DNA of 64,000 nucleotides from Botryllus schlosseri (taxonomy: Eukaryota), in assembly GCA_051294905.1 (NCBI GenBank), contig CM119373.1:1366001-1430000 (forward strand), given 5' to 3'. Made by a program: the position numbers and the translations under genes. Below are positions 22,843-64,000 of this stretch, in pieces. The notes under the pieces are model-generated. The model worked only from the letters and a program-made list of their open reading frames with translations, was not told the origin of the DNA and did no database searches. How positions within the stretch are numbered: the stretch's first letter is position 1; every line of letters begins with the position of its first letter.

Positions 22843-23100
22843 TGTTATGTTCGTGCATTTACGTTTTAGTGTCGTGCAACTCTTTCTTTCCATAGGATTA
22901 GTAATTACCGCCAATCATTATTTCCTCGTGTGTCGTGCTTGTATTTATATCCTGTGTTCTGTTGTCTCGTGGTCTTTCATTTAACTGAACTCTGGATCGT
23001 GTCGCCTGTCTTAAAGTCATACTGCTGTTAATATATACTGATTACATATTGCAACCTCGTCGTATTGAGTTATTGTTCGAACAAGATCAAGAACATAACA
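22843..23100 (+). repeat. Gypsy LTR (258 bp) followed by a tRNA-Leu-type PBS
   Basis: Terminal inverted repeats TGTTATGTTC...GAACATAACA; TGGTGTCAGAAGT at 23103-23115. Confidence 0.9.
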
Positions 23101-23257
23101 ATTGGTGTCAGAAGTCGGATTCATAGTTATTTCTGCGACAAGCATATATCATGGAAGCAACTCTTTCTTTCCATAGGATTAGTAATTACCGCCAATCATT
23201 ATTTCCTCGAGTGTCGTGCTTGTTGTTGGTCCAAATCTTCTCTGTGCCGGGCATTTC

Positions 23258-26055
23258 GCGTCGCGAATTTCATTGCGAGTTAACGGCAAGCCATCGAATG
23301 CCATATTAATAGCATGAACGATCTCAGCGTTTTCACGAATTTCCAGTTCGTCAAACTCAGGGTCTGGACCCTTTGGTAGGCGAGATAAACCGTCGGCGTT
23401 TCCGTGCTGATTAGTCGGTTTATAGCGAATATCGTATTGCTAAGCCATGAGCGTTAGTGCCCATCGCTGTAAGCGTTGCGCTGTAATCACGGGAATTTTC
23501 TTGTCTGGCGACAAAATAGCTACAAGCGGTTTGTGGTCCGTTACGAGCGTAAATTTTCTACCATACAAGAATTGACGAAATTTAGTGACTCCGTGAATGA
23601 TTGACAGAGCTTCCTTCTCGATTTGAGAGTAGGATTTTTGCGAATCGGAAAGCGTTTTCGATGCGTGCGCGATCGGTCTCTCTTCGCCATTGTGCTCGAT
23701 TGAGAGGACAGCGCCGATTCCGAATTGAGAAGCATCAGTTGACAAAATGACCTGCTTGTTTACATCATAATGAGCTAACTGCGTAGCGTCGATTACGTCG
23801 TTTTTGAGAATGCGAAAAGCTGCATCACAGTCCGCATTCCAAATGAATGTCGCCTCTTTTTGGAGAAGACGGTACAAGGCAGCGGCTTTATTCGTAAAAT
23901 TAGGAATAAACGCGCGATAATAATTGACTTTGCCCAGGAATGCCTGTAGCTGGCGAACATCCTGAGGTTTAGGCAACTGTTTGATTGCTTCAACGGATTT
24001 GTGAGACGGGCGTTTGCCGTCCTTGTCGATTATATGACCATGACCAAGGTACTCGATACTACCTTTGAAAAATTCGCATTTAGCGAAGTTGACAGTGAAA
24101 CCGTATTCGGTGAGGCGCTCAAAGAGTAGCGAAAATTTGTCAAGTTGCGAAAATGATCGCGTTCATCAATGCCAGTAACGATTACGTCATCGATAAAACT
24201 AGCAACACCTTGTAAGCCGGCGATCATGGCATCAATACAGCGTTGAAAATTTGCGGGACTAGATGCGACTCCGAAACACATGCGTCGATAACGGAATAGA
24301 CCGAATTGCGTGTTGATGACACACAAATTCTTCGCATCATCATCTAATTCTAGCTGAAAATAAGCATCGGCAAGATCAATTTTCGTGAAAATACAACCAC
24401 CCTGTAACTTGTGAAGATTTCATCTAAGGAGGGCAGGGCATGTTGATCTATCTGAATTTGTTGATTCAATGCTTTGAAGTCACCACAAATGCGTACTGAT
24501 CCATTTGATTTAGTGACGGCAACAATTGGTGCTGCCCAATCACTGTAATTGATTGGTTCGAGAATACCTTGATTGACTAATATATCCAATTCGGTTTGAA
24601 CAGCGATTTGCCTTGCAAACGGCAAGGGACGTGGCTTGTTAAATACGGGCTTGGCATTAGGTTTCAAGTGAATTGTCACCTTTGTCTTGAATTGTCACCT
24701 TTGTCTTGGTGCATCGTCCTAATACAGAGAAAACGGAGGGAAATTTTGTCTGAAATTTGTTGTTCGAATCAGAAATATCCATAGTATTACATGATTGCGA
24801 TTTGACCATCTGCGAGGAAATTGCATCCAAAGCAGACGTTCCCTTAGCGGTCATGGAGAAAACATCGCTCCAATCGAGACCAAAAATGTTTTGCCCACGG
24901 TGTTCGTCGAGAACTACCAATTTTAAGCCAACTCGAACCTCAGAACCCACCTGCACGGTTACAGTGCAAATACCTTTCACTTTCGGTGGCTTGTCGCCAT
25001 ACGCTACGAAAGAGCAATGGTATGCTGAGAGTTTCGGAGAGCCCAAAGTTTTGTACCCAGTCAATCCCACCATGGCGGAGGGTGCACCAGTGTCCCACTG
25101 TGTCGGCAACGGAATGCCTTTGATGCTGGAGTTGATCCAGAGCTGGTTTCCTACGCGTCGATATAGTTGATCGATGTCGAAGGAGAGGAGCGGCACTGAG
25201 CAGAAATTGACGGATGTGACCTGTTGCGTGATACTAGGTTTGGACATGCACACAGGTTTGATATGGCCTTTACGACCACATTTCAGACATACTGAATGTC
25301 GATATTGACAGTCTTTTCTCTGGTGATCGATGAAACAGCGGCTGCAGGATTTCACTTTGCGGGAAGTTGCCTTAATGGATTTGGAAGGTTTTTTCCCCTT
25401 CTGGTAACTTCCCGTCATTTTGTTGACGACGGAAGTGTCTTTACCGCTACTCTCGCCTTGGATAACCCTACCAGTTTCCAGTGCTCTCACGTATGTTGCG
25501 GCTACTTTGAGAACGTCGTCAAGGGATGGATTGGTTTGTGTTAGACAATGCCGTCTCACATCCGCGTGCGGCGTTTCTTTAATGATGAGATCGCGCATTA
25601 GCTCATCAACGTAGCTCTGATCACAACCATCTCTCGAGCATGTGAAGTTGCAATCTTTGGAGATTCCGCGTAGAGTAGCGATCCAATCGGCGTACGATTG
25701 TCCCGGCTGCATTTTGCAATTGTAAAATTCGTACCTGGCTGCTTGCACATGAATTGAGTCCTTGAAGTGTGTAGACAACTTCTCAGTCAACGCGTCGAAA
25801 GTTTGCGCACTGACATCAGCAGCACCAAACAAATTACGTAGGAGCGAGTACGTTTCAGGTCCAACCCATGAGAGCAGACACGCCCTTTTCTTCTCCATGT
25901 TGGAAATGCCGTAAATTGCAAGGTGATTGTTGAATCGTTGCAGATATTGGTCCCATTTCTCTTTTGACTTTACGAACGAATCAAACTTGGGAGCGGTAGC
26001 TTCAGATGTTGACGCACCGGGATTCAACCTCTGCACTAATTGCGATATGGCTTCC
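23258..26055 (-). pseudogene. Ty3/Gypsy (Mag-like) gag-protease-RT-RNaseH, frameshifted
   Basis: Two CCHC knuckles (CSRCFIDHQRKDC, CLKCGRKGHIKPVC), protease DTGA, RT WAAPIV..VRICGDFK..FIDD, RNase H STDAS..EKEAL..TDHKPL. A 19-bp tandem duplication at 24669-24706 breaks the frame. Confidence 0.92.
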
Positions 26056-26061
26056 TCATGT

Positions 26062-26415
26062 TGCAGCCTCGTCGTATTGAGTTATTGTTCGAACAAGATC
26101 AAGAACATAACATGTCTGGAAGCGAAGCGGAGCGCTTCGCTTCGAGGCAGGGTGAAAAGACAGTGATACGATATGGCTGATTGCCAAATTAGAACAAAAC
26201 GCATCGAATTTATTCGATGTGAATTGCGGCCCGCCATCCGTGACAATTGTTATGTTCGTGCATTTACGTTTTAGTGTCGTGCAACTCTTTCTTTCCATAG
26301 GATTAGTAATTACCGCCAATCATTATTTCCTCGTGTGTCGTGCTTGTTGTTGGTCCAAATCTTCTCTGTGCCGGGCATTTTGCTGCTCCAGCTCTTCTTT
26401 ACGCTGTGTTGAGCA
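26062..26415. mobile_element. Rearranged Gypsy pieces: LTR 3' end, inverted integrase fragment, LTR 5' part, inverted gag fragment
   Basis: LTR end at 26112; minus-strand IVTDGGPQFTS..FC..I.H..FHPAS (integrase core) at about 26140-26247; LTR restarts TGTTATG at 26248. Confidence 0.8.
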
Positions 26416-26419
26416 AGAG

Positions 26420-26691
26420 TTGTTTGTTTTGGGGTATTCATGGTGTTTGTCGACTACTATGGTCATTTACACCAGGCCGATATTCTTTGTATTTTCCGTA
26501 ACTGCCGACTTATACCACGGCCCACCTCCAGGCTTTTTGTAAGACACCGCTGACGCGAATGAGGTGGCGAGGAGGAGCCTAGTTAAACCTCCATCACTTA
26601 GGTGTCCGGATTCTGAAGTCGACCTCGGTCGGACTCGAACCTGCACCCATTGGTGTTGCAGCCACGGATTATACCACTGCGCTCTCTCGTC
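26420..26691 (-). mobile_element. Full-length tRNA-derived SINE (family A)
   Basis: Near-reverse complement of 57830-58108, with A and B boxes. Confidence 0.85.
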
Positions 26692-26915
26692 ATCTAAAGT
26701 CAACTGTAATGTAAAAATACATCAACTATAGGAGCCCTTAGCGCACGATTGTAGTCGCTGGTAATTAGGTAACTGCGATGCGAAAATTGGGAACTGGCGT
26801 CACATGAGAGAGAGCTTGGCTTCATGTCTCTATTTACGGTAGTACATCACAGAACGAATGCGCAATGCGCACTATGAGATTCGCTTCACGTTGACAAGCT
26901 AAAAACAGTCTACGT

Positions 26916-29061
26916 CAGTGGTTCCCAACCTGTGGTACGCGTACCACTAGTGGTACGCGAAGGTCTTTCAGGTGGTACGCGGGTAGATTCTGTTTTTTTT
27001 CAACCGAAGGGAGTTATTAGTTCAGGTGGGATTGATTTTGATTGTTTTGAACTTTTTTGACTAGTGGTGAAAAAACAATTCCATGCATCTCATCAACCCG
27101 GGCTGATAATCCCTAGTTTAATAGAATTTGTTATTACTAGGGTTATTTTTCTATACAAAATTGAGTGTTAAGTCAAAAAATGGTCAAAACTGTTTACAAA
27201 GTAAAAAAAAATTGACCCCTCCATTTCGTTTGTATCGTAGATTTTGATATTTTGCAGCTTGTAGCCCACTTTATACGTCTACCGTTGTAGGCGGCCCATT
27301 GTCTGCTCATCGTGGACCATAAACTATCAAACGAAACAAACATGTTGACAATTGACATGGTGTTATGCTCAACGTAACGCAATATCCTAAGTGAAGCAAG
27401 ACTGCTTGGGCATTGCATGGTTATTTTATCAAGAAGCGCATGATGAATAATTGTGATGTATGACAACATTGTCAGAATGGAGCAACATGTTGCGTCACCA
27501 GCAGTGTACGCACAACTTCAGTGTTGTCAGCCAACAACTGCTGCTGTTAAACGGTATTTCTCCATCCTTGGCAAGCTACATAGTAAGGACAGACACTTTC
27601 TACCCGAGAATGTAGGAAATTATCTTTCGTTGTTGACAAAATTTGTCATTTTTCAGTCAAACTACTTCGCAAGGACAGACAGTCCCAACCAGAAATGAAT
27701 ATAAGTAGCACAATTTTAACATTATGTGCGAAAACACATAATCTGGGTACGTGAAGTCAAAATTTGGTCAAAATTAAGTTTTTTTACGTCAAAATCTTCC
27801 GATTTTTAAGTAAAAAATCGCCCTAGTTATTGCACCTCTCATAGCTCAAATACGTTAGTATGACGTCATAAATGGTGAAAATATTTTTGATCGCCTACGG
27901 CAGTGGTTCCCAACCTTTTTCCACCCACGTACCACTTCGAGGTTTTATGCAGTGCTCGCGTACCACCTGCACAATTTACGCACGCCGTAGGCGATCAAAA
28001 ATATTTTCACCATTTATGACGTCATACTAACGTATTTGAGCTATGAGAGGTGCAATAACTAGGGCGATTTTTTACTTAAAAATCGGAAGATTTTGACGTA
28101 AAAAAACTTAATTTTGACCAAATTTTGACTTCACGTACCCAGATTATGTGTTTTCGCACATAATGTTAAAATTGTGCTACTTATATTCATTTCTGGTTGG
28201 GACTGTCTGTCCTTGCGAAGTAGTTTGACTGAAAAATGACAAATTTTGTCAACAACGAAAGATAATTTCCTACATTCTCGGGTAGAAAGTGTCTGTCCTT
28301 ACTATGTAGCTTGCCAAGGATGGAGAAATACCGTTTAACAGCAGCAGTTGTTGGCTGACAACACTGAAGTTGTGCGTACACTGCTGGTGACGCAACATGT
28401 TGCTCCATTCTGACAATGTTGTCATACATCACAATTATTCATCATGCGCTTCTTGATAAAATAACCATGCAATGCCCAAGCAGTCTTGCTTCACTTAGGA
28501 TATTGCGTTACGTTGAGCATAACACCATGTCAATTGTCAACATGTTTGTTTCGTTTGATAGTTTATGATCCACGATGAGCAGACAATGGGCCGCCTACAA
28601 CGGTAGACGTATAAAGTGGGCTACAAGCTGCAAAATATCAAAATCTACGATACAAACGAAATGGAGGGGTCAATTTTTTTTTACTTTGTAAACAGTTTTG
28701 ACCATTTTTTGACTTAACACTCAATTTTGTATAGAAAAATAACCCTAGTAATAACAAATTCTATTAAACTAGGGATTATCAGCCCGGGTTGATGAGATGC
28801 ATGGAATTGTTTTTTCACCACTAGTCAAAAAAGTTCAAAACAATCAAAATCAATCCCACCTGAACTAATAACTCCCTTCGGTTGAAAAAAAACAGAATCT
28901 ACCCGCGTACCACCTGAAAGACCTTCGCGTACCACTAGTGGTACGCGTACCACAGGTTGGGAACCACTGGCCTACGGCGTGCGTAAATTGTGCAGGTGGT
29001 ACGCGAGCACTGCATAAAACCTCGAAGTGGTACGTGGGTGGAAAAAGGTTGGGAACCACTG
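26916..29061. mobile_element. 1069-bp hAT element (outer copy), interrupted by an inverted copy of itself
   Basis: TIR CAGTGGTTCCCAACC; outer TSD GTCTACGT (26908-26915, 29062-29069); carries a hAT C-terminal dimerisation-domain remnant (QPTTAAVKRYFSILGKL..DRHFLPEN). Confidence 0.93.
27901..28969 (-). mobile_element. Inner, inverted copy of the same 1069-bp hAT element
   Basis: Has its own exact TSD GCCTACGG (27893-27900, 28970-28977). The 81-aa ORF is duplicated on both strands (27453-27698 +, 28187-28432 -). Confidence 0.93.
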
Positions 29062-29945
29062 GTCTACGTAGTTCGGTATGCCGTGCTTGTTGGGTCGCGG
29101 ATATATTCGTGCTGTGAAGACATAATAAATGCGCTGCAAGGTGGACGATAATGGGAATGGACAATGGATATTACGCATTGACGAATGGACATTTCGTAAA
29201 GTCGGTCCAAAACTCATGTCCAGTTTCCAATCGATTATATGTTCGCCGATACTATCGTGTCGATATTAAACTTCGAAGGAAACATCGGTATCGGTCACGA
29301 GATGAAAAATATCGGCAATTTCCATCATATTACGACATGGTAATAGGGAGTCAGAGAATTACAATCTGTGACTGTTACACTTGGAATATTGATCTGATTC
29401 TTGCAGATTACAGACAGAAGTGATATGAGTAGTCATCCCTTATGCACAAGTGAGAGTAGAAGTAACGTCGTGATTTTTTACTCAAGTACAAGTAGAAAAG
29501 GCGATTTCCAAGAAATTACGAAAGTGAGTAGTCAAAGCCTGGACACCGAACAATGTGATGTAGAAGTAGTCTAAAATCATAACCATTTGAGTAATTTCTG
29601 CAATTGAATAGTATATTCATATTGAAATAAATCCGAACCAGATTATATCAAGACCAAGCATAGCAATGGCTCTAAAGCTGTTCATATAAACCCTCTGATG
29701 TTTGGGAAATGTCAATTTATGCTGAATATTATCTGAATATATATAATGGTATCGATATATCTATTTACATTCAGACATTTTGCAGACACACACACACACG
29801 TGTATTTGATTATCATTAATGCCAACCATTTCACCTATAAAGACGCATCTCTGTTCCGCGTAAGCGGCGTCTTACAAAAAGACTTGGGCCGTGCTACAAG
29901 TCTGTAAATACGGAATCAAAAATTGGCCTGGTGTAACATGACCAT

Positions 29946-30539
29946 TAGGGCTGTTCAAAAATAACTTTTTCTTCTGGATTCCAGCCATTCAGGTTACCGT
30001 AAAAAACGCTGGGCACCAAATTTGGTTCAATTCTAACAAGTATAAGGCTCCGCAGATCCAATTAAAATTTTTAATTTATAATAGGAAATTGAAAAAAAAA
30101 GTTCAAATTTTTCCGTCAGCCACATGAAATTGTTCAGCTGTCTTCAGAGACGATGCAAAACAAATTTGACTCAATTCCAACGAGTAGAAGCGGAGTTATA
30201 CGAGTTTTTCGGATTTTCCACGGATTATCCTTGATCGGCGATAATCCGAGGATTATCAACGAATACTCAAATAACTCCACTTGTACGGGTTGGAATCGAG
30301 CCATATTTGTTTTGCATCCTTTTCGAAGACAATTCGATAATTTCATGGGGTTGATCGAAAAATTTGAAATTATTTTAAAAAAATTTTACGTAATAAATTA
30401 AGAAATTTAATTGGCTCTGCGAAAGCTTAGACTTGTTAGAATTGAACCAAATTTGGTATGCAGGCTTTGTCAGGGTAACCTGACAATTTAATCAGTGAAT
30501 GACTGGAATCCGGAAAAAAGTTATTTTTGAACAGCCGTA
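29946..30539. mobile_element. MITE with long imperfect TIRs, inserted into a SINE family A copy
   Basis: TAGGGCTGTTCAAAAATAACTTTTT / AAAAAGTTATTTTTGAACAGCCGTA; exact TSD ATGACCAT; SINE halves at about 29842-29945 and 30540-30592. Confidence 0.85.
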
Positions 30540-32739
30540 ATGACCATTGACCAATGTAGTCGAAACACCATGCTTATCTAAAACAAACAAACGCAGAGTA
30601 ACTCGGATTGTTTGACTAAACAGGCTTCTCCGGAATTCAAACAATCCAACGCACAAATCAAACGACCAATCGGGTGAATCGTGCCTACATAAAGTTACAA
30701 ATTTACAATTACGAATTTACGCAACCGTTACTACGTGGCGGCAAATACGCTATTCTCATAGTTCAGTCAACTGCTCAACATATAGCAACTGCGACATGTA
30801 GCATCTGTATATAGTTTGTAGTTAGTTCGAGATATGATTTAGAAGTCGGTTGTATAAATGTCATTGCGGCCAAGGTCTCAGTCAGTATATGGTTACATTT
30901 GTTTAGTGTTGTGCTTTCAGGCATCTCGGTTTATTTTATGCAATTTACGGCGCTGGTAGGTAATACATCTGGAAACAATCGACAGTCAGACGAGTTTTCA
31001 GAGTTGTTGTCTCATTCCGAAGACGCGTTCATCGTCTCTTGTAGAATTGGAGTAGGCTCAGCTCTTTTAAAGGACAAAACACACAGGCTACTTTGCTACT
31101 TGACCCATAATGGATGGTGAAACTGAATACAATATGCATATGTAGCCTAAGGCTTCCCGGTTCGGCTCTGTCACGAGCCACAATACCATAGCGTGAAATC
31201 TTGGAGATGAATTGGATACAACATCAGGCATTGCCCTACGATACTGCCTGCGACGTTATAATTAGTGATCTCAATAGGTGAATAGATGAAGGCCTGAATT
31301 AGCGTTAGAATAGGCCACATGAATATAAAAATACTCTGACATAGTCAAGGGGAATGCGATGCAAATATCAATTCATGAATGACTGGTGAGGATTCGGAAG
31401 TGACTTCGTTGTCGGCTGCTACGAATACGGATTGATCGTTAACTGACTGCTGTTCAGATTCTCCTAATATATTAATTACGTCGTAGAGGACATACTAGTC
31501 GTTCCTAGTACGTATAGTAATGTAAGTGCGGCACTTTCGTATACATACCATGGCCTATGTGTAAATGTCCTGTCCGTAGCAGTCAAAGGTAGTCTCAGAA
31601 TGTTCCTCACAGAACGCTGTGAGGAATGTGTCACATCGTGTTAAACTGGGTTGTTATTTATGTAAATGTATAAGTCTATAAGAGGTTTGACACGGGGAAA
31701 ATGTAGATAGTATGGAATGCATACGCCTTGTGCGTCGACAGTTTTTGGACCCATAAATCACAACGTTTAAGTACACAGTGTACAGGCTCTCTCTGGCAGA
31801 AAGTAGTGTTTTTAAGGTTGCATATAATCAAAAATCAATTTAAAGCAAACGTGTTTGAAAGATGGCCCCAATTTAAAACATGTTTTTTATTTTTTTCAAG
31901 CCATGACGTCACGGACATTCAATTGTGAAGTCATAGGGGATTGACATTGGCAATTGAAAATATAGGGTAAATATCTTCTTTGACGAAATATATGTAATAT
32001 TGCTAGTGAACCGACTATTTTGAGGGTTCCAACCGTCCCATATTGATATACGTCGGCTACATCGGGTCGTAATTGTCCGTAGGCTCATACAACATGTTTT
32101 TTGTGAAGTATTTACACAATTATGGCGTAATTCTAGAACTTGAAAAAACATGATTTTGTTTATTAAAGGCCGTTTTTGAAAACGCCGTTTGTTTTAAATG
32201 CAAACCTAAGTAATATGGGCAATATTGTCCGGACAGCGAAGTGGCATAACCTCTACAAGTCGACAATCGCACTTATTTGCGATGCTGTTAGTGAATCTGC
32301 ACTTGTTGTGAAGATGCATCTTGCAACTTTCAATGATGTCAACAACGATCGACTGACATAAGATTGTCAAATCTTGTCCCAATCTAATTACCTGAAATAA
32401 ATAGCCCGAGTAATTGCAATACTTCCGTTTCGTACTTCGACTTTCAATAAGTAAATAGGCTTTTATTACACTTTGACATTGACCTGTGTAATCGTACTAT
32501 GATCAACTATGTGCTACTGACCAGATGACTATGTTCAAATGGAAATATGTAGCGGGAAAACAAAATATAATCAGCCTATGCGATTTAATTAGCGAGCAGA
32601 TGGATAAAGGTTAACTATTTTTGTTGTCATTTGAATGTGACCGGCATTAACGAAATGCTTCAATATGACAGGTAACTAGAAAACTAGTTGCTAATCATCA
32701 CGCGAATACTACAATCAGACAAGATATCAAACGGTTTCA

Positions 32740-32794
32740 ATGGCAGAAGGAGGTCACGACCCACGTGGTCAGAAAATCAACCCGTCATCTGAAG
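32740..32794 (+). CDS. Putative first coding exon of the NLR gene (MAEGGHDPRGQKINPSSE)
   Basis: ATG in a typical MAEGG start; GT donor at 32795; phase 1, compatible with the downstream exons. Confidence 0.45.
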
Positions 32795-32904
32795 GTATTG
32801 TCGCTCTTGAGGTCATATTTTCACAATTTAGCCGTAGTAGGAAATATAATTCGCATACGAATGTCCGTATTGCAGTCGCTTCTTTTGTACATATCATTTT
32901 GAAC

Positions 32905-34410
32905 AGTATATTCATATTGAAATGAGCCCGAATATTTTCCGCGGACACTCGTCAGTGGTGGTGGTCGTCAGCAACTAATATGGAATTGGAAAGAGCATTG
33001 CATATTGCAGCAGTATAGGGACTTGACGGCATTCATGTAATAACAAAGTAGCTGACCGATTCAGGGTTGTAATGACTCGAGTCACGATTTTCTGACAACT
33101 CGACTTGACTCGAGTCATTTTCTCAAAATTCTGAAATAACTCGACTCGAGTCAATCTGTGTGTTGACTCGACTTGGACTCGAGTCATTGCGCATGACTCG
33201 AACCAAGTCATATGACTGGAGACCGACATTTCATTGTAATTTCGAGTAATAGTGAAGTAACAGCACTATTGGGATTTCGTCTATTGGTACTGGTACTTGA
33301 AAATGCGACCAGAAACTGCTAAAAATGAGGAAAATTAGTAGCCTATATTATAAAAGCGAACCATTCGATATCATAAAACAGAGTTATAAAAAAGTGGGTT
33401 TAACAAGACTTTGACTGGAAACTGAGCAGTCAACACAGTGACTTAACTCGGACTCGAGTCATAATACCATGACATCGGACTTGACACTGTTATCGAAGAC
33501 TTGGCCTCGGGCTTGACTCGGTGGTGAATTGAAAATGACTCGACTTTACTCGTGTCAAAACTATAAAAGTGAGATTGACTTGTGACTTGGACCCATGTGA
33601 CTTGGAGCCATGTGACTTGGTTACAACCCTGGACCGATATATATTAGGTTACCATTTCTGGCTACATAACCCTGAGGTTTGCGAATTCTTCAATCCCCAG
33701 ATGTTTACTCCAACACGAAGTATATTTGGAGAGAATAAGACGTCCTTGGGGTAGCGGTTATCAATGAGTCTGCGAGTATTTTTCAGTTCACGCGTTAAGT
33801 AGCCTACTCGACAAATGAGAGAATCAGGTCATACTCATGGCATGCATTGCGTAACGATAGCTGGGCTGGACAGTGACATTAAATATCGGGATAATAATCC
33901 TAAGTCCAATTCAAGGTGACACAATCAACTGCAATATCAACAATCGTATCACGAAATATGACGTCACCAGCATGGAATGAAGTCTCAAATAAAAGAGCTT
34001 TCAATGTACAAATTTAAGGTGGTACACGAACTCCTTCTGTAGACGAAGCTTGGGCTGATGTATTTTGATAAAGGTCGACTCCAACACGCACATATGAAAG
34101 CAAGACCGGTCCCTTCCGACGACGCGGAATATGTCGTCTCGATAACGTTTTGCACATACGCGATTATTCAACAGATGTTTGCCAATGGCAGAGTTCATGG
34201 GCTTTGATCGCTCAGCATCGAGCTTGAGCGGATGGGTCAAGGGCGATCTTTTCACCGAGCGTGATGCACGTGATCTGAAAAATCTAGGGGACATGCATGC
34301 TGGTTTATGCAAACGCTGCGACGTTCTATATACGTGGCTACAATCACAATGGCACTACATTACTTCGTTGCAGTGCAGGAAGCACGTCTTTCCGTGTTGA
34401 AGGGAGCTTA
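32905..34410 (-). mobile_element. Penelope-like element 3' remnant (GIY-YIG C-terminus plus pLTR with degenerate hammerhead), split by insertions
   Basis: CHCD..RTSQRL and SAIGKHLLNN..F.VV..LES.FIK..QP.L..QKEF (ORF 34001-34312). The pLTR matches 2750-2861 once 33005-33934 is removed. Confidence 0.8.
33062..33631. mobile_element. hAT MITE (GACTCGAGTC family)
   Basis: TIRs CAGGGTTGTAA / TTACAACCCTG; TSD GACCGATT / GACCGATA. Confidence 0.85.
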
Positions 34411-35592: not shown

Positions 35593-36419
35593 CAGTGATT
35601 TCCAAACTGTGTGCTTCGAGAGATTAGTCTGCCGCCAAAGATTATCAGATGTGCCGCGTATCATTTTTTTCATAAATTTTAAAAATGAGGCATTTAGGCT
35701 AGCATATCCGACTTGAACGCGTTCAAATTGCTTCATTGCTGATGAATAACCACACGTCGTGGCCATTACAACGGAACCAATCCAATCACGGCATTGCCGA
35801 TGAGTTGGGTAATTGGCACATCGCAAGTGGACTGTTTCAAAGCAAGTCTTTATTTGTTTCAAACTCCCAATGAATCAACTCATAATCAAAAAATTACTCA
35901 GCATAGCGTTGGCACACGGCCTCGACTTCATCGTACACTGCAATATATATTTTCAGAATTTGTTGTTCACGTTACGTGGGTTGATTGTCTGTCCAGCAAT
36001 ATTTTTTCAGAGCAACAGATGATTGATTTACGAAACTCTACGTTTTTTAAACGGTGTTTGGGTGGGTTTTTGCTGTCTTCTTCCAAATCCTATACCGGTA
36101 CCATGATAGGTACAAAAGCAATCCGAATTTTATTGCGATATTGATCTTCATGACTTGATATGAAGATTGATTTATTGGTTTATTGTTTTGGCTAAAATTA
36201 GGAAAAAAAAACTATTTAAGGATTATGAAAGACTACTTGAAAATGAAATTGACGACGATATGTTTGTCAGAAATGCAAGCTGTTTCTGTCGTATAAAGAA
36301 GAATAGCCATCGCATTACCACGTATAATATTTTAAAAATGCAACTTTCTTGTAACTGTGCCAGGGATGTTTTATAATTTTTCTGGTGTGCCACATACCGA
36401 AAAAGTTTGGAAACCACTG
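35593..36419. mobile_element. Older hAT MITE
   Basis: TIRs CAGTGATTTCCAAACT / AGTTTGGAAACCACTG; TSD only partly conserved (ATCTA). Confidence 0.65.
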
Positions 36420-42484: not shown

Positions 42485-43789
42485 GTGAGTTTTTATTTAC
42501 ATAAATTAATCAATATAACGGATGTACCTATTGGTTTTCAATCAATCAATCCATTGATAAGCCATTTCTAAACATACACCAGTTATTGTAGTTTAAAATT
42601 ACTTATATTATTTCAATCCAGAATATCGGAAATTTCTGTGTACATTCTCACATCCTTACTTCACAATATCACTGCAACTGCTATTTAACATCTGTATATG
42701 TCTGTATAGTGTGTGAATAGTATGGATGGTTGTATGCTACGATACTGATCAATATACAAATGTTCAAAATATTCTAATATGGATTTTTTTCGTCATGTCA
42801 AAATGTGGGGAACATGCTGGCCCCTTTCGCCGCCCCTGGCTCAGCCAATGCGTTGTAATTCAAGGTAGAATTTGAAAAACTGTGCAATATTAATAACATT
42901 CAAAAGTCAAGAATCGTTGCGAATGTATCGGGCCACCTTAAGATGAAATCATTATAAGTCATCAACATTCCAAGTGTCACGGCTAGGCTGATCAAAGTTT
43001 TGGTTGATCATGCAAGTTCACAATAAATCAAGTGGTCAATTTATTTTTGATAATAAAAGTAATTTAGAAAATTGCTACGCAGGCCAAACAAAAATTTCTC
43101 GCGCGCCACACGTTGACCACACGTGGTCTAAAATATCACCAACGTTGAGTCAAATTCACGGTCTCGTCAACCTGACCTAACCGCAAGCTATGTCCCTGCT
43201 AAAAACCAAAGTCCTAATCTGAAAATTTTAAATGACCCACTATTATGACGATATTTTTCGTAACATTCTATATCAGTGGTTCCAAACCTTTTTCAACTCA
43301 TCGCTCATCATTCAAGCTTTTCACCGATTATCGCCCCCAAATACTGTGAACCGAAAATGGGCATACGAACTGTTATCACCGGTGGGTAGACTAAAAAATA
43401 GGTCAACTTTTTGGCTTGATCTCGAACTTATACACTTTTACAGCTAAATTTTCTTGAGTTGACTACAAAAAGGTCATTTCTCCGACTCGACTCCAATATA
43501 GCCCTTTTAACGCGTCATCACTCCCGTTCGCACCTTCGTTATTTTCGCCCCCTGTCGCCCCCTTTGTCCGTTTTCGCCCCCCTATCGCCCCTTCATTTCA
43601 TAGTTTCCAAGTTGTTGGTAAGATACTTTTATTACTTACATTTTACAATTATTCGATAACAAATACAACAGTGGACCTATTCCTTATAATATAATAGCCA
43701 TCGCAGTCACAATTTAAAGTCGATGGTATTTACGAATTACTGGAATATTTATTGACAATCAAAGTATGTGGCGTATTTCTTTTCAACAG

Positions 43790-54638: not shown

Positions 54639-56168
54639 ACCAGTAATAATTTTAACAAATTATATATTATCTACGTGTCAAAGGAATTGCATAAATGAAC
54701 TGATGGAAACAAAAATTCATTTGTGAAACTGAGAACAACATGATACGATAAAAATATCACACAACAATATTTGTACAAGCCTGTCTGCATCCGTTCTCGA
54801 CTTGCAAGTTGCAACTCAACGGCGCTTCTTCGAAGTACGATCCAAAACAAGCCAATGTCAATCGTGCAACCAATGCTTTCCATGAACACGATAGACAGGT
54901 TGTGTAGAGCAAAACGGAGATGAATACGGCCGTTATAGGACTGCATTCAAGTACAATTTTGTAAACATAGCTATTTTATTACAATATCCAATCACTACAT
55001 GGCCGGTTTCAACTGATAACGCCACAAAAGCTATGAACCGGTGACATGGTCGACATTGCAGATCCAGTAGTAAGGAGAATTGCCTCGTGGACCTTTAGGG
55101 GCTCCGAGGGAAAGGAAGACACACTACACTTTCATTTGAAATTAGCCGAACGAAGTTTCCAGACAATTTTTCAACTATGAACAACCCTTCTGTGCAATCA
55201 GTAATACGCTGTAAAATCACTGCTTAAAATTTACAGCTGTATGAATAGCTTTGCATCAATATATAACTGCAAAGGCATCTCAATTGTCAGCATCAGTCAT
55301 CTGGCAAATATTATAGAGTCATAACAAGCTTCAGACACAAATCCTCCTGACTTAACATTGTACGCTGGTTGAGCGCCGGTACCATACGCATATACGTAAC
55401 GTAACTAAACCGCCCTGGCGTGAGACATAATTCCTCCATAATATCGGCTGACAACTGTCTGAAGTTCGTTCTCTAAGTGACTGCCTTATCGGGTCGAGCA
55501 AGTGCGACAATGAAGATAACAAGCAATAAATTTTGTCAACGGGTTAAGAAACGATGACGCACAGCCGCGACCGCTGGAGCGTTCTGGTCCTGTGGAAATT
55601 TCATTAAATTGAACCTCCTTTACGTTGGCGTTCTAAAGAAAATGGTTGCGGCCAAAATGTTTCTTTATTTTTTTTCTTCAATTTAAGACCACATCATTTT
55701 TAGAGCGCAGTGCCCCTTTAAAGCCAAAAATTCAAAGTAACTTAACTTTAATGGCGTTACATAAACCAGCTAAGAACTCTGCTGATATCCGAAATATAAT
55801 TTTATTACCAGTAAAAATCTAACCAGACACGGAAAAAAAATCCGTGAATTGCCCGTGTGGTGAATTCTCCCTGTCGGTTGTCCAGTCTTTCACATTTAGT
55901 TAACTGATTACCTATCTTCCCTACTATATTGTGTCGCTGCTAAATTGTCCTTTCTTGCTACATTAGTTGCTGTCATACTGTTGTGCTTCGTAGTATAGGC
56001 TATTGCACTTTTCAGCTTACTAATGCATCAGATACTTTGTGTAATAAAGGTCATAGGTCTTAAGCAGAACAAGCAGAAAAAACTGATTGTGTGCCATAAA
56101 AAATAAATTCATCGTTTCCGAGCGATGTTGTCGGGTTTGTGCATTAAAGGACTGAAATCATTTTCCAG

Positions 56169-57298
56169 AGCAGGGATTTGTAGCCAAGACCAAGCGTCAT
56201 CTGCAAAACGAGATGGGTGAAAATCGCACCATCGCAGCTCGACCTACCATGATGGTCATCGACATCAAGGGTACAAGTGCTCAAGGACATGGTGACGAGA
56301 AGTCATTATTCGGCCGTGATCTGGAAGAAATCAGTCTCGATCAAATTCACGATCCACAGGATGAGAAACCTACCAATCATGTCACTATCCTTGGGGAAGC
56401 GGGTGCCGGGAAATCCACCCTGTCCAAAATGTACAGCTTGGCTGTTGCCGATGGCAACGTTAAGACACTCAAAGATATCCAACTCGTTCATTTCATTTCT
56501 GCCGCAACGCTCCAAACTCGCAGCCCCACGACCGCGTTCAATCTATTATTCACGGAACAAATGGCACACGACCCTCAGACTGAATTGAGTCCCAGTGAAC
56601 AAGAAGCTGGTGCAGAATGGTTAAAAAATAACTCGTCTAAAATATTAATAACTATCGACGGTTTGGATCAATGCCTAGAGGAATTCGGCAATGAAAAATA
56701 CCCTAGACTGACCGTGACCACTCTCGCAAAAGCTAATGATATCATCGCTAACATCATGTCCGGCAAAATATGGCGTGGTGCTAGGGTTCTCACCACATCG
56801 CGGTGGAACACCTATTGGAACATAAAAACTGATCAGAAACCTGACAAAGTAGTATGTTTGAGAGGACTAGACGACAAAAACTTGAAAGAAATCGCGGTCT
56901 CCCAATCCATTGATGGGGATTCGATGTTCGCTCAACTCAAAAATACTTCGCCCAAATTGCTAGGTTTGTGTCGAAATCCAATGTTTCTGAACTACACCAC
57001 AAAAATATTTCAAAACAATCGCAATACGTTACCCGATAGCCTTCCTGGTCTCATGTCAGCATTCTTTCGCGAATTTCTTGACTCATCATCCGAAAAATAC
57101 TACGGTCAAATTACAAGGCTAGGTTATGACGCAATGCGAGAAAATAAATTCGTTTTCCCACACAGCTATTTGAGCAGTCGCGGAATCGATCCGAAGCTTC
57201 TGGATGACTTCTTGTCTACCGGAGCTATTCTTGAGGGTGGTCGCGACAACGTGAAGTCGTTCGACAAGTCCTCCGAGTTCTCTCACCAGACGATGCAG
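56169..57298 (+). CDS. NACHT NTPase exon of an NLR-like protein
   Basis: TTTTCCAG acceptor (phase 1); Walker A GEAGAGKST, Walker B ILITIDGLDQ, sensor-1 VLTTSR, LRGL, LCRNPMFL, winged-helix FSHQTMQ; GT donor at 57299. Confidence 0.93.
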
Positions 57299-57829
57299 GT
57301 TAGTGTTTATCTAATGCAGGGGTGTCCAACCGTCTTGCTACTCACTGGCACATGCCGATTACTTCGATGAAGTAGGGCCACATTCCCGTGGACAGTCGTA
57401 ATTTACCACCGGAACGCCAAATATATCCATCCATTATTATTGGCTACAGGAAGATTTGGCACCACCTACAGTTCTCGTGGTTTATTTACCATCACCGTTT
57501 CTTTGTTATATACTTTGCACATGAAATTTTCCAATTGTAGAAACAGAACGCCCCATCCGATAAACAGAGAGGCCCTTTTGGGCGGCACAACAGACACCCA
57601 CGTCCAGTTTTGGCATGGTAATTTGTCAGCATTATCATCAGTCTTCTAGATCGATTTTGCGAGGTTGCGTTTCGGATAATACAAACTTCAGAGAATTCTT
57701 TACGTTTTCATCGGGTATCAAAACGGGCACATTTAGAATAAAGTACAACAACAAATTCACGACTAAACTTGGAAATAAATTTAACTATCCAACCACAAAG
57801 TTTTGGACAATCACACTAAGAAATAATGT

Positions 57830-62134: not shown

Positions 62135-62584
62135 GTATGTGTATTAGGGATGGTGTGAACGTGAGGTCCACGTTCGCGTTCTTAGTGTGAACCTCAGAAA
62201 TTTAGAGGATCGCGTTCACAATCGAACCTTGGCACGCTCTGCACTCTGAACCTTATTCATATATTGCAATTTTCATTTTTGCATGGTTACTATAATTAAA
62301 GGTCGGCGCGTCTGCCCAGACTTCCTCGCGGCCAACTTCGTTCAACATCGTCGCGATATCGCGAACCCAAGAATAAAGGCGGAATGCCCCCAGGTTTAGA
62401 ACAACTATCTTTGAATAAGGCATCCAATCGGCCTAAACCGACTCTATGGATATACCGTTATCTTTTAATTGCGATTATAATTAGACTGATTTTGGTAAAT
62501 GAATGTTTTAATTGTTTATTTTTAATCGCAGTTTCCGCGCGGTTGGTAGTTCCCATATTAAAACCAATATAATAATAATAATAA

Positions 62585-63283
62585 TTGGTACGATTACAGC
62601 CCAGCACCAGTGACAGAAAACGAACAAGTAAAAATTCTGTGGGATGTACCAGTTATAACTGACCGCGAAATCAGGAGCAACCGCCCGGATATAATCGTCA
62701 AACTAAAAAAGAAAAGAGAATGCTTATTCATTGAACTGGCTGTCCCAGCTGATCACAACCTACTGCAAAAAGAATCAGAAAAACACTCCAAATACGCAGA
62801 CCTCAAAATGGAATGTGAGAAAATGTGGCGATGCAAAATAAACATTGTACCGATAGTCATTGGTGCTACAGGGGTCGTGAGCAAAAAACTCATGAGGCAT
62901 ATCCAACAAATTCCGGGTAACGTTCGATTCGACATGATCCAGAAGATCACATTATTGGGCACTGTGCACATTCTTCGGAAGGCCTTGAATGCACCACTGG
63001 ACTAAAATTACAGTTGTGAATCACAGCATAATTTCTGTAATTTCGATTCTTCATCTTCAATCATCTCTACCTCTGCTCTGTAACCCTTGCCAATTCTTCA
63101 TCTGCTGCAATTCTGTAATCTGACCTCTCCGTGTATTGCATAGGAATAACAATTTGAATGTATTACTGAAATTTTAAAAATTTACTCCAATCTCGCCATT
63201 TTCCTTTGGGGGCAGGTTGCTCCCCGGATTATGTGTGTATCTACCAGTTTTACTGTGAATAAAGAATATAATAATAATAATAA
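62585..63283 (+). mobile_element. 5'-truncated R4/Dong-like RLE non-LTR retrotransposon in (TAA)n
   Basis: Restriction-like endonuclease KILWD..NRPDIIV..IELAVP..KY..IVPIVIGATG (62610-63005), 3' UTR, and (TAA)n on both sides. Confidence 0.85.
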
Positions 63284-64000
63284 TCCCCAGAAAAAAAGGT
63301 GGTCGAGGACTACAAGAAATTGAACAAACTTTCAAAACAGAAATCATCGGCTTGTCACAGTACATCAACAACAGCGAAAACATTTACTGCATACTCATTG
63401 CACAGGAAGACAAACAGCGCAAAACAAAATCTCTGAGCTATCGTCACGACAAGTACGTCAGAGAAGTCAACATGGAAACAGCTAATCTGTACACTGCTGA
63501 AAACACTGTTGCCAAACCCACAACAATAGCAAAAGCAGCACGAGTTCAGTACAAAAATGCAATGCTCAAAATGAGAGAAACGATATGGGAATCGATGCCT
63601 CTTCATGGACAGCACAAGAAGTTAACTTCACAGCCCCATGTAGACGAGCTTTCATGGACCTGGCTATCCAGCTCAGGCCTGAAACCGGCAAGCGAAGGAT
63701 TCATTTTCGCAGCACAAGACCAATCGCTTCCTACAAAATACTATCGCAAAAGAATTCTGAAGCAAAACACGGACGGCAAATGCAGAATGTGCCACAACCA
63801 AAATGAAACTGTAGCACATCTCATGTCCGGCTGTGGTGCACTTGCAGCTACCGAATACACATTGAGACACAATAGGATTGGTCACTACATTCATCTTGAA
63901 TTATGCAAACATTTTAACATCACCACTTCGACAAAAAATTGGTACGATTACAGCCCAGCACCAGTGACAGAAAACGAACAAGTAAAAATTCTGTGGGATG
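63284..64000 (+). mobile_element. Second, longer R4/Dong-like copy (runs off the window)
   Basis: Stop-free frame PRKKGGRGL..PLHGQ..AAQDQ..CRMC..ETVAHLMSGC..RHN..KILWD; its last ~60 bp are identical to the start of the upstream copy. Confidence 0.88.

Follow-up and report, generated by a model that had tools for sequence, protein, structure and literature searches.

A 64,000-nucleotide stretch of Botryllus schlosseri DNA (the window, to which all positions given here refer) contains a long, almost flawless palindrome with the termini of a hAT transposon, and this raises the question whether such a transposon has inserted into a copy of itself, which elements and which donor took part in the event, and what an element of this form could do.

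Anatomy of the double element and its surroundings

The structure was checked on the assembled sequence, where an inverted 1069-bp element is inserted at positions 978-985 of a copy from which it differs by 1 base. The double element spans 2146 bp in total; its 16-bp TIR is perfect, and the outer as well as the inner 8-bp TSDs match at 8/8 bases and lie flush with the TIR ends (Table 1). The palindrome has arms of 986 bp (26916-27901 pairs with 27984-28969) around a spacer of 82 nt, the match of the arms being far above chance (blastn E = 0.0), and a repeat scan added a further inverted pair of 92 bp (27901-27992 and 28970-29061). Both subterminal GTGGTACG motifs (28996, 29027) have been kept in the displaced right end of the outer copy. 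A preliminary description of this DNA had claimed a near-perfect palindrome made by inverted self-insertion, with 985 + 84 = 1069 bp for the outer copy and 1069 bp for the inner one, and exact comparison reproduced the copies, their lengths and both TSDs. The single mismatch that it had reported between the arms is indeed the only one (1 difference in 1069 bases, at element position 402), and its place at 27317 stands, but the partner position is 28568 rather than 28566.

Table 1 Features of the double element and of the neighbouring retroelement
Feature	Position	Strand	Remarks
Outer TSD, left	26908..26915	+	GTCTACGT, Buster-type nnnTAnnn
Outer composite, positions 1-985 (985 bp), left arm of the palindrome	26916..27900	+	16-bp TIR at 26916-26931
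Left part of the 373-bp carrier MITE	26916..27137	+	Subterminal GTGGTACGC repeats; identity with L051 82% (1-134) and 90% (162-222)
Passenger TSD, left	27130..27137	+	GTTATTAC; found once in L051, at its empty site
Passenger, 688-bp non-autonomous hAT	27138..27825	+	TAGGG-type TIRs 11/13, GTCAAAA subterminal repeats
Open frame of the passenger, remnant of hAT transposase C-terminal dimerisation region, DUF659-type clade	27447..27698	+	PF05699
Passenger TSD, right	27826..27833	+	GTTATTGC, 7/8
Inner TSD, left (element positions 978-985, target of the self-insertion)	27893..27900	+	GCCTACGG
Inner composite, complete 1069 bp, inverted	27901..28969	-	Right end 27901, left end 28969
Spacer, 82 nt, non-palindromic (right terminus of the inner copy)	27902..27983	.	
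Mirror copy of the passenger, 688 bp	28060..28747	-	1 difference from the first passenger
Inner TSD, right	28970..28977	+	GCCTACGG
Displaced right end of the outer copy, 84 bp (positions 986-1069)	28978..29061	+	TIR retained
Outer TSD, right	29062..29069	+	GTCTACGT
Ty3/Gypsy gag-protease	24657-26081	-	
Ty3/Gypsy RT	24033-24419	-	
Ty3/Gypsy RNase H	23440-24162	-	
Ty3/Gypsy integrase piece	26059-26319	-	

On its left side, a broken Ty3/Gypsy-type LTR retroelement (22843-26383, minus strand), which has an LTR-like repeat at either end, stops about 530 bp short of the double element, and 0.9 kb downstream of the latter lies a fold-back repeat of about 600 bp with 75% self-complementarity (29943-30542); another fold-back repeat (2731-2975) has 114-bp arms (97%) and a 17-nt spacer. 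The frames of 62-199 aa up to 37.7 kb (148/264) gave Pfam retroelement domains only and no host gene around the element, and Rfam gave no matches in 24000-34000. A NACHT exon is found at 56156-57370 (PF05729, E 1e-14), and an ATG at 32740, 3.67 kb beyond the element and followed by a possible splice donor, could mark a short first exon; no longer homologues of the NACHT exon appeared at E 1e-20, which is weak evidence, and a joining of 32740 to this exon is hypothetical. Elsewhere in the window there are a duplicated pair of 99-bp exon-like sequences (39281 and 42397) and a 147-aa frame (62562-63005) with a weak Pfam match only (E 0.0028), the start of which is repeated at 63934 and which we take to resemble the terminal portion of a non-LTR retroelement with its restriction-like endonuclease.

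A Buster-type carrier and its hAT passenger

Each 1069-bp unit is a composite, in which a 373-bp MITE of Buster type, here called the carrier, bears a 688-bp hAT, the passenger; the length of the carrier is that of the composite minus the passenger and minus one TSD. The earlier picture of a single simple hAT with four termini has to be given up, as a Buster MITE together with a second, unrelated hAT brings the double element to eight termini. Short TIRs and 8-bp TSDs, which characterise the hAT superfamily, are present in carrier and passenger alike.

Relatives of the carrier were collected by a left-end scan of metagenome contigs, which yielded 92 loci that presumably represent DNA of the host animal; the same left-end pattern had no matches in viral contigs or in prokaryote genomes, and the window flanks had none in the 92 loci. 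Complete MITEs of 311-428 bp with a TSD of at least 7/8 occur at 18 of the 92 loci and correspond to 12 distinct insertions, and a central TA is present in 46/49 of the distinct 8-mers adjoining the left ends of the relatives. One locus, L051, starts with a left end like that of the carrier, which is followed by an interior of about 2.7 kb with four broken transposase frames and by a right part 83-90% like the right part of the carrier; where the window holds the passenger and its TSD, L051 has a lone 8-mer, that is, an empty passenger site. Its frames are FAM200/ZBED5-like (score 0.95) and also match SCAND3-type clusters, and one of the four matches DUF4371 (E 1.1e-4). These names, FAM200/ZBED5/SCAND3-type and DUF4371, are assumed by us to mark the Buster clade. 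From the ends, the transposase frames and the empty site of L051 it follows that the carrier, to judge by its sequence, derives by internal deletion from a Buster transposon about 3 kb long, and that the entry of the passenger preceded both the doubling and the insertion at this locus. Buster hAT MITEs have been described with a TIR starting with CAG and an 8-bp nnnTAnnn TSD, and as arising by internal deletion of full-length Buster elements (PMC3517528, PMC3499496); both TSDs of the composite are of this nnnTAnnn form. Among the window frames of at least 62 aa up to 37.7 kb, and of at least 130 aa beyond, there was no intact transposase or autonomous partner.

L051 itself harbours, at its positions 166-768, a nested CAGTG-type element of about 600 bp that is bordered by a perfect TSD, and such a nested element, 596-604 bp in length and with its own TSD, is common to L051, L052, L072 and L079, the outer flanks of which are different; nested units are thus carried along in Buster relatives. 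In the window, five more CAGTGGTT-type termini were noted, at 43274, 58312 and 59953 (+) and at 36419 and 4671 (-), four of them adjoined by nnnTAnnn, and for the terminus at 36419 (-) a partner end lies at a distance of 827 bp, with a TSD of 5/8.

Contigs from four of 24 sequencing runs (X1, X2, X5 and X6) were compared with 26400-27992 of the window; three of these runs are DNA, or probably DNA, of one organism and one is of another organism, X1 and X2 being one sample. In X6, a carrier-only joint passes from 27136 to 27840 with 7 letters between and thereby skips the passenger. Two contigs of X5 bridge carrier/passenger junctions, and the composite is therefore present in another sample; the first of them, record 19 (depth 3.6), departs from the window by 4 substitutions and a single gap over 352 bases, and the second, record 22 (27590-27901, depth 2.09), shows no differences in 312 bases. 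The left flank is without cover in X5. The end of record 22 falls precisely on 27901, the final base common to both arms, and fits a junction branch or a palindromic molecule counted twice, but it may also be due to chance or to a drop in coverage and is given no weight here.

None of 20000 random sequences of similar composition matches the TIR and TSD pair of the passenger, and at row 27832 about 98% of the contig depth in X1, X2 and X6 is the base that restores its TSD to 8/8. The passenger TSD fits nTnnnnAn, which we take to be the Ac-family consensus. This string was not found in two reports on Buster elements (PMC3517528, PMC3499496). The only coding remnant of the unit sits in the passenger (27447-27698); its match to PF05699 is weak (E 0.041, under the curated cut-off), and phmmer returned 112 matches (best 1.8e-14), and DUF659 is present in 11 of the 14 matches scanned. 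For one DUF659-bearing relative, DUF659 and ZBED1-like clusters lie nearest in the Atlas. The passenger may resemble hAT19 or a CGGBP1-related hAT. PMC9004415 and PMC8097297 yielded no TIR or TSD for comparison. Membership of the passenger in Buster was rejected, since its TSD scores -8.0 bits under the family target model (see below), the remnant has no match to the Buster C-terminus of L051 (E 21), and the clusters of its relative are DUF659/ZBED1-like. The unit as a simple deletion derivative of one hAT was rejected as well, because the passenger is bounded by ends and a TSD of its own and its empty site is known.

Origin of the inner copy

The target preference of the family was described by a positional model made from the 49 distinct 8-mers beside the left ends of the relatives, and all 8-mers of the element were scored on both strands (n=2124). 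The inner target reaches 5.6 bits and rank 8/2124, and the outer TSD 2.6 bits; a rougher model, built on five sites of the window, places the inner target at rank 5/1062. A top-ranked target, the duplication of 8 bases and joins at the TIR ends argue for the action of a transposase over a fold-back, in agreement with the preliminary description, which had drawn the same conclusion from two independent TSDs. Both TSDs are perfect and of the form nnnTAnnn. We hold with high confidence that the transposase-made self-insertion is real. Rank 7/1062 in the window-based model belongs to element positions 470-477 (27385-27392), and in X2 two contigs join 27390 to a carrier-type terminus, with a short side of only 21 letters; other copies of the family may be targets at this site.

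Regarding the donor, both copies share the minority base at 27 of the 29 element variant rows listed for X1, the other two listed rows being 27406, where the base is about even, and 27317, where the copies differ. This sharing makes the two copies closest kin, and the kinship favours a local donor. In our estimation, the double probably formed at its present locus from a local donor, either the sister chromatid or the homologue, and a sister-chromatid donor is plausible. Two observations weigh against this reading. At 27317, the rare base stands in the outer copy and the family base (about 99% of depth) in the inner one; if the outer copy was the template, one would have to invoke a mutation after copying, an error of sequencing or a donor with a slightly different sequence. 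In addition, no left end was located within a family copy at 91 related loci, although these belong to other samples and are mostly short contigs. In the proposed course of events, a 688-bp TAGGG-ended hAT of the DUF659-type clade would have entered a 373-bp Buster MITE, Buster transposase would then have moved the 1069-bp composite into GTCTACGT at the present locus, and a copy of the same composite, likeliest from the sister chromatid or homologue, would finally have been pasted in inverted orientation into the resident copy, at one of the best Buster sites of the latter and 84 bp from its right end, with a 2146-bp double-Ds-like element as the product.

The copies differ by 1/1069 = 0.09% (Poisson 95% range 0.002-0.52%), and versions of the flank on contigs of other samples differ by 4-9%. 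X1, X2 and X6 depart from the window flank at 7/174 to 11/124 bases, which points to other haplotypes or to paralogues. Provided that these contigs represent alleles, the self-insertion would be young relative to the diversity of the flank, which is no sign in itself that the family moves at present.

Alternatively, the double could have been built elsewhere by the same mechanism and have arrived as one 2146-bp unit, which we consider unlikely. Its outer ends are intact, the displaced right end retains both subterminal motifs, and the 596-604-bp nested element travels at the loci of four relatives with different flanks, all of which would suit such an arrival. So would the outer TSD, which is as perfect as the inner one and for this reason does not permit the outer and inner events to be ordered; sequence alone gives no order, and the one assumed in the proposed course is inferred. 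A second double was, however, seen neither among the listed joints nor at the 92 related loci, both being weak tests.

That the inner copy stems from an unlinked, near-identical sibling composite, which reached the resident copy by chance, seems rather improbable to us. The family base of the inner copy and the rare base of the outer one at 27317 speak in its favour, as does X5, in which a sibling composite shows 4 substitutions over 352 bases and another piece agrees with the window over all of its 312 bases. Yet a genome-wide jump would have to find a 1-kb target that happens to be the closest kin of the donor, and alleles common to both copies are rare in X1, X2 and X6; for the allele at 27343, for example, the values are 15.5/10858 (X1), 69/22148 (X2) and 0/11195 (X6), which are summed contig depths and not copy numbers.

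An assembly artefact, in which a fold-back read or the mis-resolution of a repeat would have doubled one copy, finds some backing in the contigs: none among the 32 records (of more than 102,000) and 15 joints (of 273) listed, which are contigs of other haplotypes, bridges the self-insertion or flank junctions. We nevertheless regard an artefact as very improbable, as nothing in a fold-back would lead to an 8-base duplication at a top-ranked site, to joins exactly at both TIR ends and to a resumption at 978, and the arms differ at a site whose two bases both occur in independent runs. Two other routes to an inverted copy were rejected: a template-switch inverted triplication would need both switches exactly at TIR ends together with an 8-bp duplication, and intramolecular autointegration would be expected to leave behind deletions or inversions instead of an additional copy. 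Conversion can take place between inverted arms that lie close together, and at many sites the composite departs from the majority of its family, but a real, older insertion whose arms were made alike by arm-to-arm gene conversion or by read polishing is hardly credible, since the outer TSD copies, which lie outside the arms, still match at 8/8 and the flanks of other samples differ by the percentages given above.

End geometry, folding and known systems

Returning to the self-insertion from a local donor, what such an element could do depends on the arrangement of its ends. It encodes no transposase. The left ends of the carrier, at 26916 and 28969, alternate with its right ends, at 27901 and 29061, with 26916 and 27901 as well as 28969 and 29061 forming directly oriented left/right pairs. 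With Buster transposase supplied in trans, the two normal end pairs could lead to excision of the inner copy or to movement of the whole double, and the two directly oriented pairs would, by their geometry, allow alternative (sister-chromatid) transposition; the two inverted passengers, with a gap of 234 bp, would offer the same end layout to a second transposase. The earlier suggestion that the termini could support alternative transposition is borne out on geometric grounds, as the end arrangement is that of known substrates. For Ac/Ds, direct left/right pairs undergo sister-chromatid transposition, which results in deletions, inverted duplications and breakage (PMC3239180, PMC3429523).

As single-stranded DNA, the central 184 nt of the stem are predicted to fold with -65.1 kcal/mol (z -16.4), and hairpins may form in RNA or in single-stranded DNA. 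In yeast, breaks are down by 80% at a 9-bp spacer (PMC8053094), and recombination is down 300-fold when the spacer grows from 12 to 100 bp, with single-stranded regions removing the protection (PMC10164571). In view of these spacer data and of the 82 nt between the arms, extrusion of a cruciform from the palindrome appears unlikely; strong cruciform fragility was rejected, and the cruciform instability put forward in the preliminary description is weakened. A naturally segregating, still-responsive state-I breaker in an animal, with eight hAT ends and two transposases, or else a read-through hairpin that silences two hAT families, would be the boldest reading of the locus, and we find it doubtful. 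If read through, such a hairpin locus would silence two unrelated hAT families at once and be self-protected from breakage.

Of known structures, the double Ds of maize comes nearest to this architecture; it is said to have been described by Doring et al. in 1984 as an identical Ds copy inserted in inverted orientation. Double-Ds-type elements are thought to have been purged for breaking chromosomes. Chromosome-breaking Ds elements have multiple ends and nested Ds elements gain breaking properties, and no such chromosome breaker was found in maize B73 (PMC3260210). The features of a double Ds are found here in the assembled sequence, namely a near-identical inverted copy inside another, with its own TSD, and directly oriented ends. 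Like the maize double Ds (state I, Ac/Ds), the element consists of a non-autonomous hAT inside a copy of its own kind, with direct left/right pairs; it differs in belonging to Buster and not to Ac, in residing in an animal genome, in being a two-family composite and in the insertion lying 84 bp from the end, whereby the element is almost wholly palindrome, the comparison being one of anatomy alone. We found no natural animal hAT of the double-Ds form in the literature, mostly that outside subscription journals.

Among the other systems, a local hop in rice (OsRLG5-161) put a second Ds 1.1 kb away in inverted orientation, and the two directly oriented end pairs so formed underwent sister-chromatid and single-chromatid transposition (PMC3239180, PMC3429523). 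The rice case is transgenic, with the transposase supplied and the copies adjacent, whereas the copies here are nested; the closest match to its layout is provided by the two passengers. Insertion into the own family or the own copy is known as well from rice MITEs such as Castaway and Gaijin, more than 10% of 6,600 rice MITEs being present as multimers (PMC5172404), and from P{lacW} of Drosophila, for which three self-insertions were mapped (PMC4744444), but these belong to other superfamilies and the fly cases are artificial constructs. The Ac/Ds composite insertions p1-ww-id1 and id4, from which dsRNA can be read and siRNA produced (bioRxiv 10.1101/2020.01.07.897926), likewise are inverted duplications of transposon sequence; these go back to alternative transposition accompanied by re-replication, and they are transcribed. 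With Buster (Charlie) hAT MITEs such as Mar, and with TcBuster, the element described here has in common the CAG TIR, the nnnTAnnn TSD and the origin by internal deletion, and it is distinguished from them by carrying a second hAT and by being doubled.

As an intact, natural Buster example in an animal, the element offers a substrate on which one may ask whether sister-chromatid transposition is among the reactions of Buster transposases, and also whether inverted self-insertion seeds silencing. The structure is very likely real, and this one well-preserved locus represents a known architecture, that of double Ds, in a new host and family setting: a clean example of it rather than a new kind of system.
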